UHGV virus genome: UHGV-1355560
Strand: one strand, 5' to 3'
Source of the DNA: a virus
Length of the DNA: 27,009 nucleotides
The notes under the pieces are model-generated. The model was not told where the DNA came from. It did not search any database and saw only the letters and a list, made by a program, of their open reading frames with translations. Both the position numbers and the translations under genes were made by a program. Shown in pieces: positions 1 to 15,807 of the stretch (position 1 is the first letter of the stretch; every line of letters starts with the position of its first letter).

Positions 1-292
1 ACGTGCGATTAAACTATTCATCTGTCTCTCCCTTGCTGTAATCTTTGTATGTTCTTTCTGTAAGTGCGGAATGCTCTGAAGAAGAGCCAACCAAAACTAC
101 TTACATCAATTGTAATATCGAAATCTGTTTCATCATCTAAATCAACAAAGACGACCTAAGCATGTAGCTTCCATCCCTTCTTCAGAGTCACTGTTGATTA
201 CGAAAGCGTATGTCTCCGTTCTGAACCGAGGCACCATCTCTGATAAAAAGTCTAATACTAAATTCATAATTCTTCTCCTCTGAATAAGAGTA

Positions 293-436
293 TAAAGGGC
301 ACATCATAAGATCAACCCGTAAAGGCCTCCTCATACCAACAACCCGTGTACGCTGAAGTAAAGGGCATGTCATAAAGGGGACTTCATGTTAAGGCACTAT
401 CACATAAAGGCCATGTCACGTTAAGGCCTATCCACC
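293..436 (+). repeat. Array of about 7 imperfect direct repeats of a ~15-bp unit, consensus roughly WWAAGGSC-MYRTCAY; five copies are tandem at 359-435 and two are dispersed at 293-310 and 320-336
   Basis: Read directly: TAAAGGGCATGTCAT / AAAGGGGACTTCATG / TTAAGGCACTATCAC / ATAAAGGCCATGTCAC / GTTAAGGCCTATCCAC in tandem. The region 1-476 has no long ORF on either strand. Confidence 0.7.
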
Positions 437-476
437 CATGTACTGAATCTCAACTTACCACATTCCTTACACTTCC

Positions 477-668
477 ATGCTGATAGATAGAGACCATGTA
501 TTCTTTCATCCCCGTAAGCTTTACGAAGAAGATGGTACAGAAACAATTACGTGGATTCACAAGAGTGAGTTAGTAGACGACGCACTGCGAGACTACGAAA
601 AATTTTTGGTCGACGGTTCTAATTCTTTTAGAGGAAGAGAAGGGTGCAGAACTTCCGTGGGAAGGTGA
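477..668 (+). CDS. Hypothetical small protein (63 aa), function unknown
   Basis: ORF with protein-like charged composition, followed by a hairpin plus T-tract at 726-746. No clear Shine-Dalgarno site upstream of the ATG, so it may not be a real gene. Confidence 0.3.
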   Translation: MLIDRDHVFFHPRKLYEEDGTETITWIHKSELVDDALRDYEKFLVDGSNSFRGREGCRTSVGR

Positions 669-725
669 GACGATTGCTCTAGGTAAGATGTTTAACCTGT
701 CCGTTGGTGATTGTAAGTAATGTTT

Positions 726-746
726 GCCTCCGTTGGGAGGCTTTTT
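726..746 (+). terminator. Rho-independent terminator-like hairpin (GCCTCC-GTTG-GGAGGC followed by TTTTT)
   Basis: Perfect 6-bp GC-rich stem, 4-nt loop and a run of 5 T, immediately upstream of the SD and start of the 778 ORF. Confidence 0.55.
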
Positions 747-777
747 GTGTTGTTGATAATGTAGAAGGAGTATAAAA

Positions 778-1412: not shown

Positions 1413-2954
1413 ATGTCATTAGATAAACAAATTTATGAAGCTCTAACTGGTAACAACCTTAGTGTAGAGGAAAAGAAAGCACTATTGAATATGTTGAAAG
1501 AGCGTGACCAATGGAGGAAGTATAATAAGATTTTGTCTTTCAAGGCGTATGACTTCCAAAAGAAATTTTATGCAGCAGGATTGAAGCATCGCTTTAGATT
1601 CTTGTGTGCAGCGAACCGTGTTGGTAAATCTTACAGCGAGGCATACGAGTTTGCTTGTCATGTCACAGGTCGCTACCCAACTTGGTGGACAGGATATAAA
1701 TTTAAAAGACCTATCTTAGCATGGGCAGTTGGTATTACAGGGGATTCCACAAGGAAAGTGTTGCAAAAGGAATTGTTTGGTACACCTATCGGAAAGGATA
1801 CAAACTTATTGGGGACAGGTGTCATTCCTCGTGATGCTATCGTCATTGACACGATAGAACGAGATGGTAACAAACTTCAAATCGTACAAATCAAACATCA
1901 AAATGAAAGAGGAGAGTTTGACGGTTTAAGTACATTAGAATTCCGTTCAACCCAACAGGGTGAACACACATTGATGGGTGCAACAGTTGACTACATTTGG
2001 TTAGACGAAGAAGATCCATACGAGTCTATGGCTATATTCGCACAGTGCGTCACACGTACACTCACAACTAAAGGTCTAGTTACAATTACAGCTACACCAG
2101 AGAACGGTTTAACTGAACTGGTAGATAAATTTATGAAAGGTGAAGGGGATGAGAACACAGGTTCTCTATATTTCCAGAATGCTTCTTGGTGGGATGCTCA
2201 TGCAGACCTAGGTGGACATATCACTGACCAAGATATAAAAGATATGACTGAAGGTATTCCAGCGTGGCAATTAGAGATGCGTTCAAAAGGTATGCCATTG
2301 TTAGGAAGTGGTTTGATATATGATGTATCGGATGACACAATTAAATGTGAACCATTCGAAATTCCTGATACGTGGAAACGTGTCTGTGCAATTGATATTG
2401 GTATTGATCACCCAACTGCTGCTGTTTGGACAGCTTACGATGCAAACACGGATACTATCTATGTTTACGACTCATATAAAGAAGGTGGCTTTACTCCAGT
2501 GTATCATGCTCCAGCTATTAATGGTCGTGGTCAGTGGATTCCTGTCATCCTACCGCACGATGCGGATAATATTGAGAAAGGTAGTGGTTCATCTGTTGCT
2601 CAATTCTATAAGAATGCAGGAGTTAACGTACAGAGTGAGACCTTCTACAACAAAATTGGAATGGATGGTAAAAAGAACTTCTTTGTAGAACCAGGAATCA
2701 CAGATATCCGAGAAAGAATGATGAGTGGACGCTTTAAAATCTTTAACACAGCCGCTAACGCTAAGCTATTCGAAGAGAAAGCTAGATATCACCGTAAGGT
2801 TGGTAAGATTATTAAAGAACATGATGACTTAATGGATGCAATGCGCTATTCAGCGTGCTCTGTTACACATCGTGGTCGCTCTAAGCATGACGTTAGCTAT
2901 GGAAGTGCTTCTTTGTATGAGGCAAACGTAAGCAGATGGAATCAGAGTTACTAA
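1413..2954 (+). CDS. terL: Terminase large subunit (513 aa)
   Basis: Walker A-like motif AANRVGKSYS, Walker B-like VDYIWLDEED and a C-terminal nuclease-like region with conserved acidic residues (CAIDIGIDH...). GGAGG SD 5 nt upstream. Typical size and position ahead of portal. Confidence 0.85.
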   Translation: MSLDKQIYEALTGNNLSVEEKKALLNMLKERDQWRKYNKILSFKAYDFQKKFYAAGLKHRFRFLCAANRVGKSYSEAYEFACHVTGRYPTWWTGYKFKRPILAWAVGITGDSTRKVLQKELFGTPIGKDTNLLGTGVIPRDAIVIDTIERDGNKLQIVQIKHQNERGEFDGLSTLEFRSTQQGEHTLMGATVDYIWLDEEDPYESMAIFAQCVTRTLTTKGLVTITATPENGLTELVDKFMKGEGDENTGSLYFQNASWWDAHADLGGHITDQDIKDMTEGIPAWQLEMRSKGMPLLGSGLIYDVSDDTIKCEPFEIPDTWKRVCAIDIGIDHPTAAVWTAYDANTDTIYVYDSYKEGGFTPVYHAPAINGRGQWIPVILPHDADNIEKGSGSSVAQFYKNAGVNVQSETFYNKIGMDGKKNFFVEPGITDIRERMMSGRFKIFNTAANAKLFEEKARYHRKVGKIIKEHDDLMDAMRYSACSVTHRGRSKHDVSYGSASLYEANVSRWNQSY

Positions 2955-3137
2955 AATCCTAAGAGTTTCTAGAGAGGTTTAGGCCAGAGATTAGCCTTTC
3001 TAGCGCAGGGGGCAAGCATTCTGGCGGCTTGTTGGGGAGAGTAGGCTACGACCTCCCTTTTAGTCTTGTGGTTACTAAATTCTAGTGGTGGTAGGACAGC
3101 CCCACGTTAAAAACAGAAACGTCCAAACAGAAAAATT

Positions 3138-3165
3138 GGGAGGTTTGTCCTCCCTTCTTTTATTT
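3138..3165 (+). terminator. Hairpin GGGAGG-TTTGT-CCTCCC followed by a T-rich tract, between terL and portal
   Basis: 6-bp GC stem and T-rich tail read directly. Sits just upstream of the portal SD, so it may attenuate rather than fully terminate. Confidence 0.4.
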
Positions 3166-3191: not shown

Positions 3192-5435
3192 ATGGCTAAG
3201 CAAAAATATAGTGAAGAGGTGTTGGACGAGTTACGTGTTGACCTTCAACGTCGTTTTAATTATGCTCAAGGCTACGTGGACATGGCTGTTAAGGGCTATG
3301 CTCGTGAAGCTTGGGAATATTTCTATGGTAACTTACCTGCACCAGTAACTGCTGGCAGCTCTAGTTGGGTAGATCGTACTGTTTGGGAATCTGTTAACGG
3401 TACATTGCAAGATATTATTAACGTATTCTGTTCTGGTGATGAAGCAGTTACTTTCGTAGCTGACAACCAACAGGATTCTGATGCTGCTGATGTAGCAACT
3501 AAATTGGTTAACCAAATTCTTCTGCGTGACAATCCGGGATACAATATTATCTCTTCTGCTGCACAAGAATGTCTGGTTACTCGTAACTCTTTTATCAAAT
3601 ATTATTGGGATGAGCAAACTTCTACTCAAACTGAAGAAGCTGAAGGTGTACCACCGGAAGCATTGGCTGCATATGTTCAGGGATTAGAAGCTGGTGGACT
3701 CAAGAATCTGGAAATCTTCACTGAAGAAAATGAAGATGGTACAGTAGATGTTAAAGTTACTTACGAACAAACTGTTAAACGTGTGAAAGTTGAATATGTT
3801 CCTTCAGAGCAAATCTTTGTTGACGAACATGCTACCTCTTTTGCAGATGCACAATACTTCTGTCATCGTGTACGTCGTTCTAAAGAAGATCTGGTTGCTA
3901 TGGGCTTCCCTAAAGATGAGATTGAAGCATTTAACGACTGGACAGACACGATGGATACTACTCAATCTACAGTTGCTTGGTCTCGTACTGACTGGCGTCA
4001 GGATATTGATGCTGATATTGGTACAGATACTGAAGATATCGCTTCTATGGTTTGGGTTTATGAGCACTACATTCGTACTGGTGTTCTAGATAAGAATAAA
4101 GAGTCTAAACTCTATCAGGTTATTCAAGCTGGTGAGCATATCCTTCACACTGAAGAAGTAACTCACATTCCGTTTGTAACCTTCTGCCCGTATCCGATTC
4201 CGGGTTCCTTCTATGGTCAATCGGTCTATGACATTACGAAAGATATTCAAGATTTACGTACCGCGTTAGTTCGTGGTTATATTGATAACGTCAACAATGC
4301 TAACTATGGTCGATACAAAGCTCTTGTTGGTGCATACGATCGTCGCTCTCTGCTTGATAACCGTCCCGGTGGAGTGGTTGAAATGGAACGTCAGGACGCT
4401 ATTGACCTGTTCCCATACCATAACCTACCTCAAGGTATTGACGGCCTCCTAGGTATGTCTGAGGAGCTTAAAGAGACACGTACAGGTGTAACCAAACTAG
4501 GCATGGGTATCAACCCTGATGTGTTTAAGAATGATAACGCTTATGCAACCGTAGGCTTGATGATGAATGCTGCACAGAACCGTCTCCGTATGGTATGTCG
4601 TAACATTGCTCACAATGGTATGGTTGAATTGATGCGTGGTATTTACAACCTTATCAGAGAAAATGGTGAAGTTCCTATTGAGGTACAAACCCCTCGTGGT
4701 ATGATTCAGGTTAACCCGAAACAATTACCAGCTCGTCATAATCTTCAAGTTGTTGTAGCTATCTCCCCTAACGAGAAAGCAGAACGTGCACAGAAACTGA
4801 TTAGCTTGAAACAGCTGATTGCAGCAGATGCACAGTTAGCGCCTCTCTTTGGTTTGGAGCAAGACCGTTACATGACTGCACAGATCTTTGAGTTGATGGG
4901 TATTAAGGACACACATAAATACCTTCTGCCTCTGGAACAGTATCAGCCTCCAGAACCTTCTCCGATGGAAATCCTCCAGCTCGAGATGACTAAAGCTCAG
5001 GTTGAGAACGTACAGGCTTCTTCTCAGAAGATGATTGCTGATGCATTCGACCAACGTGAACGTACTACATTCGAACAGCAGAAAGCTGCGGATGAATTAA
5101 GTCTGCGTCAGGAAGAGTTGCAGTTCAAGCAAGAAAATGCAGCAGATGCAATGACTCTGGAAAACCGTAAAGAAGATAACAATGCTACTCTGGAACAAGC
5201 CAAGCACAAGTTAGCTCTTATGCAACAGCAGGTCCGTCAGTATGAATCTGTACTGAAAGAATTGCAGATGGTTATGTCTCATCAGGTAGACCAAGAGAAG
5301 ATTGTTCAGCAAGCTCGTGTTCAGGACAAAACTTTGGAACTCCAAAAGAAAGAAGCTAATGTAACTAAGAAAGAGCAACAAGCTTCTCTCAAAGATTCAC
5401 GGATTCCAGGCAAACGTCTTGGAAGTAAAAAGTAA
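3192..5435 (+). CDS. Portal protein (747 aa) with a long C-terminal Q/E/K-rich coiled-coil-like tail
   Basis: Large protein directly after terL and before scaffold and capsid. The last ~150 residues are a low-complexity heptad-like Q/E/K-rich segment ending in a basic tail (GKRLGSKK). Confidence 0.8.
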   Translation: MAKQKYSEEVLDELRVDLQRRFNYAQGYVDMAVKGYAREAWEYFYGNLPAPVTAGSSSWVDRTVWESVNGTLQDIINVFCSGDEAVTFVADNQQDSDAADVATKLVNQILLRDNPGYNIISSAAQECLVTRNSFIKYYWDEQTSTQTEEAEGVPPEALAAYVQGLEAGGLKNLEIFTEENEDGTVDVKVTYEQTVKRVKVEYVPSEQIFVDEHATSFADAQYFCHRVRRSKEDLVAMGFPKDEIEAFNDWTDTMDTTQSTVAWSRTDWRQDIDADIGTDTEDIASMVWVYEHYIRTGVLDKNKESKLYQVIQAGEHILHTEEVTHIPFVTFCPYPIPGSFYGQSVYDITKDIQDLRTALVRGYIDNVNNANYGRYKALVGAYDRRSLLDNRPGGVVEMERQDAIDLFPYHNLPQGIDGLLGMSEELKETRTGVTKLGMGINPDVFKNDNAYATVGLMMNAAQNRLRMVCRNIAHNGMVELMRGIYNLIRENGEVPIEVQTPRGMIQVNPKQLPARHNLQVVVAISPNEKAERAQKLISLKQLIAADAQLAPLFGLEQDRYMTAQIFELMGIKDTHKYLLPLEQYQPPEPSPMEILQLEMTKAQVENVQASSQKMIADAFDQRERTTFEQQKAADELSLRQEELQFKQENAADAMTLENRKEDNNATLEQAKHKLALMQQQVRQYESVLKELQMVMSHQVDQEKIVQQARVQDKTLELQKKEANVTKKEQQASLKDSRIPGKRLGSKK

Positions 5436-10354: not shown

Positions 10355-13300
10355 ATGATCGTTTATAATAGCCAAGCACCTGATGCAGTGAATGATGTTG
10401 GGCAGTTTGGTGCTAAGGAAGGCTCTATCGGAGCTTACAAGCAAGCAGCAGAATATGCAGCTGACTCCAAATATTGGGCACTGCTAGCGGAGTCTAAGTT
10501 TGGTACAATTGATGACTTGATCACTGAAGTAGAACGTCTGTATCAACAAGGTGTTTTAATGAAGCAAGATATCGAAGATCTTAAACAGGACTTTAAAGAT
10601 CAAGATGCTCGTTTGATGACACTTATTGCTCAGACTAACGCAGCAGTGTCGGATGCTAATAATGCCGTTGCTTTAATCAATCAGAAACTTATTGAGGTTC
10701 AGAAACAGCTTGATGTTCTGTTGGGAATGTCTGTTGACGTAACTACACTTCCTCCGGGAACTCCGGCTACTGGCTCTTTTAATCCGAACACTGGTGTAAT
10801 CTCTTTAGGTATTCCAGAAGGTGATCCCGGAAAGGATGGTTCTGTTAAAGATTTGGATACAGCACCTACTGGTGTTCCAGAGCTAGGTGATTTAGGTTTC
10901 TATGTTGACAAAGATGACAATACTGTCCACAAGACTACTCTAGAGAATATTGCTAACTTAATTCCATCTGTTCGTTCTGTGTCTGTTAACGGTGGAACAC
11001 CTGCTGATGGAGAAGTTAATCTGGTCCTAGACAAAACTACTGTAGGTCTTAATAACGTAGTTAACGTAGCCTCTTATAGTATCTCTCAAGTTGACGGTAA
11101 AGTGGATGGGTATGTTAAAACCTACAGAACCAAAGCTGCTGCGGATGCTGATGTAGTTAACCGAAAGGTTGGCGAAAACATCCTAGTTTGGGAGGATTAT
11201 AAATACGTCTTCTACACTGTAGCTGCCGATAAAACACTAACTCTTTCTAAAACAGAAAATAGGATTGTTACGGTAAACTCTCGAGTTCCGGATTCTACTG
11301 GTAATATTGATATTACGATACCTACCGGTAACCCGTCTTTGTATTTGGGTGAGATGTTAATGTTCCCTTATGACCCAGCCAAACAGGTGTCATATCCGGG
11401 TGTTCTTCCAGCTGATGGTCGTCTGGTGTCTAAAGATAACGCTGCTGATTTAGGCCCATCTCTTGTCAGTGGTCAACTTCCTGTTGTTTCTGAAACTGCG
11501 TGGCAAGCTGGAGCTAAACAGTATTTCTCTTGGGGCAAGTTAGCTGATGGGGTTACTGATGCGGATTCAACAAACTTTATCAATATTCGACTTCCCGATT
11601 GGACAGGTGGTGAGGCAATTAGATCTCCAAGTAAAACAAGTGACACTCAGTATGATGGAAGACCTCTTTCTCAGGTTCCTTATGTTGTTGCTGTTAACGG
11701 TAAGATCCCTAATGAAGCAACAGGTAATGTTACAGTCACAGCATCAGATGTAGGTGCCCTTCCTACTACTGGTGGTAAGATGACAGGCCATCTAAATCTC
11801 AGCTCTGGGATTGTGTTAACAGGTACCGCGAGTTCTGGAACATCCATTAATATCGCAACTGTTGCAACTGATGGTTCCGTTCTTCTCGGTAGTGATACAG
11901 TTAAAGCTAAAGTCCTATCTTCTGATGTCCCTGTTTATGCAAGCGCTTCGGGAGAGAAGAAGTTTTACACTGAGGCTAACAAACCAACTCCTGCTGAAAT
12001 AGGGGCTGCTGCTATCACCTCTGCTGGGGTTAACGGGGATATCACTAAGCTTGAAGGTTTGGTTGGCCCTACTCGACTGGGTGGAGATGCTGTAGGTGAT
12101 CTAGATGCTGTTACCTTACGTCAGTTAAGAAACCAAGGGGGTGGCGGTGGTGGGGCTAGCTTGAACGGTGTCTCTAATTTCAATATTGGTGATTTCCGTT
12201 TAGTAGACAGTCGTGCTCTTATTCACTCTAATGACGTAACTTCTGACGGTCAATTATTATCTCGTACGGCATACCCAGATCTGTGGGCTTATGCTCAAGC
12301 GTTGTCTCCTATCACAGATGCTGCTTGGCTGGCTGACCCCCAACAAAGAGGTAAATACTCTTTAGGTGATGGTTCTACTACATTCCGTGTCCCTGACCGA
12401 AATGGTGTCCAAAGCGGCTCTATCACAGGGTTGTTTGGTAGGGGTGACTCTGGTAATTCTTCTAACAGTGGTTCAGTTTCTGATGCTTCTCTGCCAAACA
12501 TCACAGCTAGCTTCTCTTCAGACTTAAACGGAAAAGCTTGGTTTCCTTTCACTACAGCTGACGGGTCTATGCTTGTCTCAACATCCGGTAGTGGAACTTT
12601 TATGCCAACTGCTGGATATGAAACTGGGACCCAAGGAAATATACTTAGGTTCGATGCATCTAGACAATCCTCAGTTTATGGTCGATATAGTAACACCCAG
12701 AACGTAATACCTAAAAGTTTTACTGGCGTTTGGGTAATCAGGGCTACTGGTGGATTCACTGCTGCTAATACAGAGTGGTCTGTTATTAACTCCGATGCAA
12801 CCAAACCTTCTACTGGGTTTACAGTGTCTGGTGGTTTAGTCCGCTCTGAGTATAAAATAGGGACCGACCTAACTTACTCAGCAACCTTGTCTGCTTATGG
12901 GCAAATTGATGGAGCCTCCGGAACATCTGGAGCTAAAATCTTAAACGGGTCTCAGGAGTGGAAATTCAACAATGCTGGAACATTAGTTCTTCCTAATGCG
13001 GTATCTCAGCTTGGTACAGAAAGACCTGATGGAGCTATCAATGTTGATGCATACCTAAGACCTAAAGATTTGGTAGCCAACTCACTGAACTCTGTCGGTG
13101 TTGCGGCTTACGAGCGAAACGGTATGAGGATGATTAACTTCAATCAAACCACTCCTGGATATGTTTCTTACTTCTCTGGGGATTGGTATGATGGCAGTTA
13201 CACTCTTGGTGGCGTTCGTGGTACTGGTACAGACCTGATTCATGCTCAGATTGCGGTAAACAACGGTCAAGGTGTAGCAGCTGATTTTAAGTTCATGCCG

Positions 13301-13669
13301 GACGGAACTGCTCAAGCAGGGAACTGGTCAAGCACTTCAGACGAAAGACTTAAAACTAACATCAAGCGTATTGAGAATCCTATTGAAAAACTTAAGGCTA
13401 TCAAAGGTGTTACTTGGGAACGTCTTGATAAACTTCCTAAACCTAATGGTATTGGCTTCCTTGCGCAAGATGTGGAGAAGGTTTTCCCTGACGCTGTTAA
13501 GGCTCTCCAGTATTCAGACACTGAATTGAAAGATGGAACTATTGTGAAAGATGTTAAGTCTGTAGACACCTATGGGGTAGCTGCTGCACTGCATCACGAA
13601 GTCCTATTAGTTTTGTTAGATAGAATAGAAGCTCTTGAGAAAGAAGTAAATGAATTAAGGGCACGGTAA
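10355..13669 (+). CDS. Tail fibre or tailspike protein (1104 aa) with a central tail-collar-like module and a C-terminal intramolecular chaperone (peptidase S74-like) domain
   Basis: Gly-rich linkers and a C-terminal ...NWSSTSDERLKTNIKRIENPIEKLKAIKGVTWERLDK...GFLAQDVEKVFPDAV segment, matching the self-cleaving chaperone found on endosialidase-type fibres. Strong SD. Confidence 0.85.
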   Translation: MIVYNSQAPDAVNDVGQFGAKEGSIGAYKQAAEYAADSKYWALLAESKFGTIDDLITEVERLYQQGVLMKQDIEDLKQDFKDQDARLMTLIAQTNAAVSDANNAVALINQKLIEVQKQLDVLLGMSVDVTTLPPGTPATGSFNPNTGVISLGIPEGDPGKDGSVKDLDTAPTGVPELGDLGFYVDKDDNTVHKTTLENIANLIPSVRSVSVNGGTPADGEVNLVLDKTTVGLNNVVNVASYSISQVDGKVDGYVKTYRTKAAADADVVNRKVGENILVWEDYKYVFYTVAADKTLTLSKTENRIVTVNSRVPDSTGNIDITIPTGNPSLYLGEMLMFPYDPAKQVSYPGVLPADGRLVSKDNAADLGPSLVSGQLPVVSETAWQAGAKQYFSWGKLADGVTDADSTNFINIRLPDWTGGEAIRSPSKTSDTQYDGRPLSQVPYVVAVNGKIPNEATGNVTVTASDVGALPTTGGKMTGHLNLSSGIVLTGTASSGTSINIATVATDGSVLLGSDTVKAKVLSSDVPVYASASGEKKFYTEANKPTPAEIGAAAITSAGVNGDITKLEGLVGPTRLGGDAVGDLDAVTLRQLRNQGGGGGGASLNGVSNFNIGDFRLVDSRALIHSNDVTSDGQLLSRTAYPDLWAYAQALSPITDAAWLADPQQRGKYSLGDGSTTFRVPDRNGVQSGSITGLFGRGDSGNSSNSGSVSDASLPNITASFSSDLNGKAWFPFTTADGSMLVSTSGSGTFMPTAGYETGTQGNILRFDASRQSSVYGRYSNTQNVIPKSFTGVWVIRATGGFTAANTEWSVINSDATKPSTGFTVSGGLVRSEYKIGTDLTYSATLSAYGQIDGASGTSGAKILNGSQEWKFNNAGTLVLPNAVSQLGTERPDGAINVDAYLRPKDLVANSLNSVGVAAYERNGMRMINFNQTTPGYVSYFSGDWYDGSYTLGGVRGTGTDLIHAQIAVNNGQGVAADFKFMPDGTAQAGNWSSTSDERLKTNIKRIENPIEKLKAIKGVTWERLDKLPKPNGIGFLAQDVEKVFPDAVKALQYSDTELKDGTIVKDVKSVDTYGVAAALHHEVLLVLLDRIEALEKEVNELRAR

Positions 13670-13679
13670 TATAAATAAT

Positions 13680-13698
13680 GCTCCCTTCGGGGAGCTTT
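13680..13698 (+). terminator. Hairpin GCTCCC-TTCG-GGGAGC with a short T tract (weak terminator or RNA-stabilising hairpin)
   Basis: Perfect 6-bp stem with UUCG loop but only 3 T after it, immediately followed by the SD of the next fibre gene. Confidence 0.4.
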
Positions 13699-13710
13699 AA
13701 GGAGATTTAA

Positions 13711-15807
13711 ATGTCTAGAGATTTAATGCCCAAATCTGGCATACTTCAACCATATGTTGTTGTTTCCAGAGATGCAGCTGTTGTTGGCGTTTCCACTGTA
13801 GATGGTGTTGCTGGAGCTGTAAATTTAACTGATAAATACTTGCAGAAAACAGAAGCGGCTGATGTATATCAAACTAAAACAGAAGGTGCATCTAAAGATT
13901 ATGTATTAGATTCAATTAAACCTATCATGGAAGGTGCTTTGTTCAAAGCAGACCCTTTTGTAGATAATAACATCCCTTTCCGTTCTGCTGGGGCTAATGG
14001 TGTAGAGTCTGTGGATATGATGAAAGTCACCACTGATAACTCAATTAAGATTGGTAGTTATGCTTCCTCAGTTCAAGGTGTAGAAATTCACTCTGCTGGT
14101 CGTCTTCAGGTTGTTGACCAGAATGACTCTGGGGTAGAAACTAAGTACCCTGTTTATTCTAAACGATACCGCCCTGAGATTGAAGATTTACCTTTCGCTG
14201 CAATCGGAACTTATGTTAAAGATTCAAAAGGTCGTACTGTTGGTGTTACCCGTACAGGTATTAACTCTGATATCAAACAGCTTACACAGAAGGTTACTTT
14301 CACTCAGCCAGTAACTGTTGCCGATGCAGTTGGTGACTATGATGCTGTCACACTAAGACAACTCCGTAATAGTAGTGGTGGTTCTGGTGGTCCTACAATG
14401 AGCGGTATTTCTAACTTTGGTATTGGTGATTTCAGACTAGTAGACAGCCGTGCTTTTATCCAATCAAATGATGTTACCTCAGATGGTCAGCTGTTAAATC
14501 GTGCTGATTACCCAGAGCTTTGGGCTTACGCACAACTATTGACCCCAATTAGTGATGCAGATTGGCTGGCTGACCCCCAACAAAGAGGTAAATACTCTTT
14601 AGGTGATGGTTCTACTACTTTCCGCGTTCCTGATAGAAATGGCGTTCAAACCGGTTCTATCTCTGGTCTGTATGCTCGCGGTGACGGTGGTAACAGCTCC
14701 AACGACGGTACTGTTCAGCAGAACGCCGCGCCTGATATTACAGGCTCCGTTGGTGCGAACATATGGAGCGTATATGGAGATCCTACGGGGGCGATGTTTG
14801 CGGCTGATCCAGCACTTAATATTCCGTTAGGCGCAGGAACCACACCAGCGCTTTCCGTCGGCTTTCGAGCGGGCCTATCAAACGCCGCTTATGGTCGCGA
14901 CAACACGACCGAAGTCCGCACCAACAGCTTCATAGGTGTCTGGGTTATTCGTGCTAATGGTGGCTTTACTGCTGCTAATACTTCTTGGTCTGTTATTAAT
15001 GGCGACAGCGTTGCTCCGGGTACTGGAACAAAGATAGTAGGTGGTGAGATTCGTTCTGACTATAATATTGGAGACTCTATGCACATAAGATCCTCTATGC
15101 GTGCTGATGGTAACTACGGTCAACGTGGAGGTGGTGTATGGAGAATTGAGGACTATCAAGGTAAAAGTGCAGAGATATCTTTCAACCTTGGTGGTGAGTT
15201 AGTGGTCCCAACATACACCAGAGGCGTGGGGTCGGGTTTCATTGCATCTTCTAAATTAGGGTCTGATGGTCAGTGGCCTACAACATCCCCGGCGTTTATT
15301 TGTGAGCTAACAGGCAGAGTGGGTAATCCCGGAACACCGGGTGCTGTTTTCTCCATGTCTATGGCGGAGAACGTGGGTGTTGATAGCTTTGGCATACTTA
15401 GATTCTCAGGAGCAGGGGTGAATGTGGACTGGCTGTTTAACCAGTTTGGTAGTGCCATAGCTCCTGCTAACTGGGTGAGTAATTCGGATATCCGAATTAA
15501 AAAGGATATTGCTAAGATAGAAGAACCTCTTGAGAAGATGAAGAAACTACATGGGTACACTTGGCGACGCTTAGACGGGGGCCAGTTTGGTATTGGGTTC
15601 ATTGCTCAAGAAGTTCAGGATATCTATCCAGAGTTGGTCTATACAGGCCCAGACAGAACCCTCCCTGATGGAACAGTTGTCAAAGGTGTCCTATCTCCAG
15701 ATTCTACTGGTATTGCGATTGGTCTTCACCACGAAGCTATTCTGGCTTTGATGGAACAAATCGACACCCTTAAAGCAGAGATTGCTGAACTCAAATCTAA
15801 CAAATGA
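13711..15807 (+). CDS. Second tail fibre protein (698 aa) with the same tail-collar-like module and C-terminal S74-like chaperone domain
   Basis: Shares DAVTLRQLRN...GDFRLVDSRA...WLADPQQRGKYSLGDGSTTFRVPDRNGVQ with fibre 1, and has a C-terminal ...NSDIRIKKDIAKIEEPLEKMKKLHGYTWRRLDG...GFIAQEVQDIYPELV chaperone domain. Confidence 0.85.
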   Translation: MSRDLMPKSGILQPYVVVSRDAAVVGVSTVDGVAGAVNLTDKYLQKTEAADVYQTKTEGASKDYVLDSIKPIMEGALFKADPFVDNNIPFRSAGANGVESVDMMKVTTDNSIKIGSYASSVQGVEIHSAGRLQVVDQNDSGVETKYPVYSKRYRPEIEDLPFAAIGTYVKDSKGRTVGVTRTGINSDIKQLTQKVTFTQPVTVADAVGDYDAVTLRQLRNSSGGSGGPTMSGISNFGIGDFRLVDSRAFIQSNDVTSDGQLLNRADYPELWAYAQLLTPISDADWLADPQQRGKYSLGDGSTTFRVPDRNGVQTGSISGLYARGDGGNSSNDGTVQQNAAPDITGSVGANIWSVYGDPTGAMFAADPALNIPLGAGTTPALSVGFRAGLSNAAYGRDNTTEVRTNSFIGVWVIRANGGFTAANTSWSVINGDSVAPGTGTKIVGGEIRSDYNIGDSMHIRSSMRADGNYGQRGGGVWRIEDYQGKSAEISFNLGGELVVPTYTRGVGSGFIASSKLGSDGQWPTTSPAFICELTGRVGNPGTPGAVFSMSMAENVGVDSFGILRFSGAGVNVDWLFNQFGSAIAPANWVSNSDIRIKKDIAKIEEPLEKMKKLHGYTWRRLDGGQFGIGFIAQEVQDIYPELVYTGPDRTLPDGTVVKGVLSPDSTGIAIGLHHEAILALMEQIDTLKAEIAELKSNK

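Follow-up and report, generated by a model that had tools for sequence, protein, structure and literature searches.

A conserved array of same-oriented bipartite repeats beside the terminal repeat of Kuravirus phages and its possible role in genome packaging

The DNA analyzed here, UHGV virus genome UHGV-1355560 (27,009 nucleotides; "the window" below denotes this whole stretch), belongs to a Kuravirus, an Escherichia coli podophage of the phiEco32/SU10 type, with positions 524-2955 being 99% identical to SU10. Close to its left end, the window contains an array of seven short direct repeats that is real and conserved and, to judge from its sequence features, very probably functional. In related genomes, such units, each composed of two conserved half-sites (TGA-N5-CCTTWA), form a row next to the direct terminal repeat (DTR), at the concatemer junction. 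The reading we favor, with a probability of roughly 0.4, is that the array is a packaging or concatemer-junction site recognized by the terminase, by analogy with pacB of T7 and cosB of lambda. We found no earlier account of this array in the Kuravirus literature, a search which did not extend to the main phiEco32 transcription paper. Kuravirus phages, among them phiEco32, SU10 and ES17, are employed and engineered as coliphages for therapy; a defined cis-acting signal beside the terminal repeat would provide a testable handle on the formation of genome ends and would guide genome engineering, the design of transducing particles and the choice of the left-end DNA to be kept.

The array and its confinement to a single locus

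The seven 14-bp units of the window lie within 293-434 on the plus strand, all in one orientation (Table 1), and fit the consensus (G/A)T(A/T)AAGG(G/C)-N4-(T/C)CA(T/C). The start-to-start spacings are 27, 39, 14, 16, 16 and 16, and the last five units form a head-to-tail block (359-434) with 14-16 bp from one to the next. The first-pass annotation, made from the letters of the window, had described seven copies of a motif with five of them head-to-tail, and this description is borne out; the array is also recovered by Tandem Repeats Finder and by a separate repeat search. Outside the array, the pattern TAAAGGS-N4-YCA has zero further exact matches on the plus strand of the window. The related pattern WAAGGSNNNNTCA, searched on both strands of the window, yields 6 matches against 1.05 expected; all six are within 294-418, and 0 of 100 shuffles reach this count. 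The segment carrying the array is inverted in the window relative to the related genomes (see below); in the natural orientation, on the coding strand of the relatives, the unit reads TGA-N5-CCTT(T/A)A.

A search of the rest of the genome, which the first-pass annotation had proposed as a check, was run on the complete SU10 sequence (77,327 bp) with a weight matrix. All 7 strong matches (7/7, scores 18-24) fall in the array, at approximately 404-545 and on one strand; the only other matches above a score of 12 are one opposite-strand copy, at 123-140, in each copy of the DTR. The matrix was built from the array units with the SU10 DTR copy included, and a plain regular expression recovers that DTR copy too. 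The same picture emerges from 10 further independent contigs (95 kb), where all 62 of the 62 same-strand units are located no more than 900 bp to the right of the DTR, and the opposite strand of every contig carries exactly one unit, which lies within the DTR. This inverted copy occupies the same place in all other relatives. A looser match to the unit, TTAAAGGGGTACT, is found inside the SU10 DTR at 17-31. In addition, three of the approximately 12 weak background matches in SU10 (51,555, 51,600 and 52,153; scores 9.8-11.3) are located within 1.8 kb in the primase/helicase gene, an observation made post hoc that may be due to chance.

Conservation of the half-sites among relatives

Comparison of the window with 12 relatives reveals a mismatch rate of 3.5% in the cores (TGA and CCTTWA), 24% in the N5 interiors and 10.6% in the linkers; thus, the interiors differ about seven times as often as the cores (Fisher p = 4e-16, a value that overstates the number of independent observations because the 12 sequences are related). 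The two conserved half-sites of a unit are separated by about one helical turn, the usual signature of a protein that would touch two successive major grooves. The proposal of the first-pass annotation that the array consists of protein-binding sites fits this pattern of conserved cores and variable interiors.

Between 4 and 7 units, all in the same orientation, are present in 20 relatives that include EP335 (genus Nieuwekanaalvirus) and the Bas92/Bas94 phages; contig ERR11172772 has 2 units in its available sequence. Where relatives share the common layout, the stop codon of gene 1, which encodes an approximately 54-aa C-x-H...C-x-x-C protein, falls within the first unit; in most relatives the last unit ends 39 bp ahead of the ATG of gene 2, with a longer gap or an extra small gene in between in a few cases. 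The 25-bp spacer between units 2 and 3 is conserved in relatives as well. In some relatives, 94, 116 or 182 bp are inserted between units, and small open reading frames (ORFs) are found in some of these insertions. Thus, the number and spacing of the units vary whereas the cores and the orientation are kept, in EP335 and also in the more diverged L019/L020 lineage, whose TerS is 76% identical. In the latter, the units form three clusters between the end of the DTR and the terS-like gene; four units are located within an N-terminal coding extension of the gene 3 homolog (4137-4261), where three are in one frame and encode D-x-P/A-F, and two units lie 55-100 bp upstream of the terS-like gene (4903-4947). 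In L019, genes 1 and 2 are missing and the units are still present, so that neither gene product is an obligatory partner of the array. In distant lineages (TerS 52-68% identical), a repeat search and a k-mer cluster scan detected no clear equivalent array. Weak, lineage-specific candidates were all that emerged, for example TCCCCTTC, present in three copies upstream of terS in L021.

These observations bear on the possibility that the array arose by tandem duplication and has no function, or that it is a chance pattern. A chance origin is difficult to reconcile with the shuffling results. The differences in copy number among relatives are what duplication without function would produce, but such duplication would not be expected to leave cores so much better conserved than interiors, or a motif kept across genera with the same orientation and location in all genomes examined. 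We regard this explanation as highly improbable.

Position of the array relative to the genome ends

The 193-bp DTR has been mapped or annotated in phiEco32, SU10, Paul and YF01; for phiEco32 the ends were established by experiment, and for the other three they were derived from reads. The window itself lacks the DTR. In SU10 and other relatives, the array lies 210-350 bp interior to the left DTR, with the terS-terL genes about 1 kb downstream of it. A second oriented motif, ACGGG(G/T), is concentrated in the same region: the 994-bp SU10 concatemer junction, composed of right-end unique DNA, the DTR, gene 1 and the array (SU10 37-516 and 76,822-77,227), contains 9 copies against 0.31 expected, all on one strand. 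Two of these copies are inside the array, and the window accordingly reads ACCCGT at 315-320 and 342-347. On the right flank, that is, to the left of the right repeat of SU10, the main motif is represented by one weak half-unit (77,110-77,127, score 10.1), and ACGGGK is found at 76,822 and 76,851.

The early sigma-70 promoters of SU10 have been placed at the right end. This placement suggests that the right end enters the cell first and that the left end is packaged first; the array would therefore be on the initiating side, next to terS-terL.

Likeness to the repeat arrays of T7 and to other packaging sites

Among known systems, the closest likeness is to T7. Both T7 and the Kuravirus phages are podophages with short direct terminal repeats that package from concatemers, and both have short same-oriented repeats, spaced by about 12-16 bp, just inside the left repeat, with copies within the repeat. 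The subterminal arrays of T7 are called SRL and SRR. Direct examination of the T7 genome identified CCTAAAG in a single orientation, with 3 copies in the terminal repeat, about 13 just inside the left repeat (175-370) and about 5 ahead of the right repeat. There are also clear differences. The Kuravirus unit is a bipartite 14-bp sequence (TGA-N5-CCTTWA) that has only TAAAG in common with CCTAAAG, on opposite strands, and the relation is therefore one of architecture, not of descent. Furthermore, a gene separates the Kuravirus array from the repeat, which is about 210 bp away rather than 15 bp; the unit copy within the repeat is in inverted orientation; on the right flank, ACGGGK is accompanied by no more than a weak half-unit of the main motif; and no T7-type RNA polymerase is involved. 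The small terminase of T7 recognizes pacB in the concatemer junction (PMC9860248). The CCTAAAG repeats can be equated with pacB only tentatively, and the likeness is to the layout. With these qualifications, the Kuravirus array appears to belong, by its architecture, with the T7-type junction arrays without being a sequence homolog of the T7 units, and it offers a second, independent example for the question of what such subterminal arrays do. The SU10 authors pointed out that generation and packaging of complete genomes without a T7-type RNA polymerase may differ from the process in T7, by a mechanism that is unknown.

As in the Kuravirus array, short repeated sites are located by the cut site and the terminase genes, on the first-packaged side, in the cosB region of lambda (R1-R3, to which the small terminase gpNu1 binds) and in the pac boxes of SPP1 and P1. 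Unlike these phages, the Kuravirus phages have blunt direct repeats at their ends, neither cohesive nor headful, and there are seven direct units instead of the three sites of mixed orientation in cosB; the binding of a small terminase is putative in Kuravirus.

A tentative packaging scheme and the candidate binder

The data favor two of the candidates listed in the first-pass annotation, packaging recognition and T7-like concatemer-junction repeats, given the position by the DTR and the T7-like layout. Under this reading, the array would be a conserved cis-acting element, a row of 4-7 same-oriented bipartite sites at the Kuravirus concatemer junction. The units on replicated concatemers would be occupied by an oligomeric DNA-binding protein, for which the TerS-like 157-aa product of 778-1251 is the most probable candidate. 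In this way the left, first-packaged side of the junction would be marked; the bound protein would then direct the large terminase to cut at the DTR boundary, after which packaging would start and run rightwards. The reading of repeated sites by oligomeric small terminases has been described (PMC7672466).

The assignment of the 157-aa protein, encoded upstream of TerL, as a small terminase is plausible, given the gene order and weak profile matches. When the profile of its family was compared with the PDB, the two best matches were small terminases, 7joq (E = 0.0016) and that of PaP3, 6w7t (E = 0.062); among its homologs, 18 of 48 match DUF5681; and the YF01 authors made the same assignment using HHpred. 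A fold search with this protein was uninformative.

Promoter, operator and origin readings of the array

An operator or promoter array that serves the left-end operon of genes 2 and 3, bound by a phage or host regulator and with a transcription start just upstream of gene 2, would account for the placement of the last unit in the relatives: besides lying 39 bp ahead of the gene 2 ATG, it touches the ribosome-binding site and overlaps a conserved -10-like hexamer, TATACT. The unit clusters of L019/L020 are likewise directly upstream of gene starts, including that of the terS-like gene, and the adjoining gene 1 encodes a small zinc-ribbon-like protein that could bind DNA. The candidate -35 element, however, is poor and not conserved, and a scan for sigma-70 promoters that required 9 of 12 matches detected no such site in 293-436 on either strand. 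The gp36-type element TAATGTAKA is found in the window at 757 and 9550 only and is absent from the array. Moreover, seven sites, together with a DTR copy and units within coding sequence, would be unusual for one small operon, and the persistence of the units in L019, which lacks genes 1 and 2, argues in the same direction. Altogether, this reading appears unlikely.

We consider it unlikely that the units are replication iterons, either an origin or a loading site for a replication protein near the genome end that could, for example, serve to duplicate the terminal repeat during concatemer processing. Iteron arrays of plasmids and phages (lambda ori, P4 ori/crr) likewise repeat a conserved core in direct orientation at one locus; the cluster of the second motif, which covers the whole junction, and the post hoc matches in the SU10 primase/helicase gene could also be cited for this view. 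In contrast to iteron arrays, there is no recognizable initiator gene beside the Kuravirus array, the neighboring genes 1-3 being without recognizable function, and no obvious AT-rich unwinding element was seen, although no formal scan was made; the units follow one another at 14-16 bp instead of the phased 11 or 22 bp that is usual for iterons, and the replication genes are about 50 kb away. The array was also compared by eye with DnaA boxes and with IHF and CRP sites, and the likeness was poor.

The first-pass annotation had further suggested overlapping T3/T7-type promoters for a single-subunit RNA polymerase, on the strength of a loose likeness of CATAAAGGGGA to the T3 promoter core consensus, the sole point in favor. 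This idea fails: phiEco32-like phages are stated by the SU10 authors to have no RNA polymerase of their own, and the gene table of SU10 lists none, only a sigma factor, so that promoters of this type can be regarded as excluded for practical purposes. The middle and late promoters use the gp36 element TAATGTATA, and promoters formed by the units would, in the natural orientation, point at the genome end, antisense to gene 1. At the RNA level, the array region has no Rfam match at E <= 1 and shows no unusual folding stability (z-scores of 0.22 and 0.51 for the two strands).

The inverted left-end segment of the window

Compared with about 110 related genomes and contigs, the window has its first approximately 523 bases in inverted orientation. 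In local BLAST comparisons, window 7-525 equals SU10 313-830 in reverse complement, and from position 524 the window corresponds to SU10 from 1253 onwards; the rest of the window is collinear with SU10, and the equivalent of SU10 831-1252 is absent. In all 91 related phage records, the counterpart of window 7-537 is on the opposite strand with respect to the terminase genes, and the canonical gene order is found in 20 of 20 further metagenomic or isolate contigs that encode an identical TerS or TerL protein. The 10-bp sequence at the junction, CGAAGAAGAT, is present in both gene 1 and gene 3 of the relatives, in inverted orientation. An exact search for the junction sequence in collections of viral, metagenome and genome contigs gave zero matches, as did exact-protein look-ups of the chimeric 63-aa ORF product that spans the junction (477-668) and of a structural protein with a divergent sequence. 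The window also differs from its relatives by two +1 homopolymer changes, at 147-149 in gene 2 (relative to SU10) and at 621-622 in the gene 3 fragment, both of which shift the frame; these could be due to local pseudogenization or to low sequence quality near the window start. The large structural genes of the window are all intact, and the flipped segment, with 9% divergence from its nearest relatives, has the look of a genuine allele, not of sequencing error. The microhomology and the two homopolymer shifts are compatible both with a real inversion and with a chimeric assembly as the source of the join.

Thus, the adjacency of the array and the terminase genes in the window results from the inversion or chimeric join at 524-533, and this gene order should be trusted only after a check against the reads. 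The description of the array in the first-pass annotation as part of a leader of the terminase genes has to be abandoned: in about 110 relatives, the array precedes gene 2, in the opposite orientation, and is separated from the terS-like gene by about 960 bp and two genes, and the terS-like gene has its own terminator-promoter unit. Nor is the region an ORF-free leader of about 480 bp, as had been thought; it consists of the array, fragments of genes 1 and 3, a terminator and a late promoter, and contains the chimeric ORF.

A bolder version of the packaging reading, possible but doubtful, is that the array, the inverted DTR copy and the ACGGGK motif together make up the Kuravirus packaging and end-processing signal, read by a ring-shaped small terminase that perhaps loops the approximately 280 bp between the inverted DTR copy and the array, and that the window records a natural inversion of the left end at the 10-bp microhomology. 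If so, the inversion destroyed genes 1 and 3 and left the seven units intact, which would mean that the array is selected independently of the neighboring genes and tolerates flipping.

Table 1. Array units, genes and signals at the left end of the window
Feature	Position	Strand	Remarks
Gene 2 homolog (phi32_4 / SU10_02)	1-267	-	ATG 267-265; ribosome-binding site GAGGAG 275-280
Unit 1, TAAAGGGCACATCA	293-306	+	Corresponds to the last unit in relatives, 39 bp ahead of the gene 2 ATG
Unit 2, TAAAGGCCTCCTCA	320-333	+	
Conserved 25-bp spacer	334-358	+	TTCAGCGTACACGGGTTGTTGGTA in natural orientation; CAGCGTACACGGGTTGTTGGTA in relatives; carries an ACGGGT copy
Unit 3, TAAAGGGCATGTCA	359-372	+	
Unit 4, TAAAGGGGACTTCA	373-386	+	
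Unit 5, TTAAGGCACTATCA	389-402	+	
Unit 6, TAAAGGCCATGTCA	405-418	+	
Unit 7, TTAAGGCCTATCCA	421-434	+	Overlapped by the final codons and stop codon (421-423, minus strand) of the gene 1 fragment
Gene 1, 3' fragment	421-523	-	Small C-x-H...C-x-x-C protein, Paul-type allele; truncated at the inversion junction
Gene 3, 3' fragment (phi32_5 / SU10_03)	524-720	+	+1 frameshift at 621-622
Inversion or chimera junction	524-533		10-bp microhomology CGAAGAAGAT
Intrinsic-terminator-like hairpin and T run	726-746	+	Closes the gene 1-3 unit
gp36 (phage sigma) late promoter element, TAATGTAGA	757-765	+	Serves the terS-like gene; published promoter
Putative small terminase subunit, 157 aa	778-1251	+	Candidate array binder; weak profile matches
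Large terminase subunit	1413-2954	+	Terminase_6N and Terminase_6C domains

Other observations

At 1352-1391, in the spacer between the terS-like and large terminase genes, a long imperfect hairpin of 18 pairs precedes a T run; a possible sigma-70 promoter in this spacer has been proposed by the SU10 authors. In the metagenomic relative L007 (3447-5716), the large terminase is called as three ORFs of 198, 148 and 308 aa, which suggests an inserted element, such as an intron or a homing endonuclease, or assembly errors. A search for gene 2 among viral contigs retrieved only 2 loci. An insertion of about 183 bp between the large terminase and portal genes of the window (2956-3138) is missing in SU10 and was found in only six related records, e.g., FH3 and XT32; it has no above-threshold match in Rfam, and its folding z-score is 0.1. 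Finally, the tail-fiber region of the window (11,700-15,800) is 66-85% identical to that of SU10 and partly rearranged, a divergence that represents the usual host-range mosaicism.
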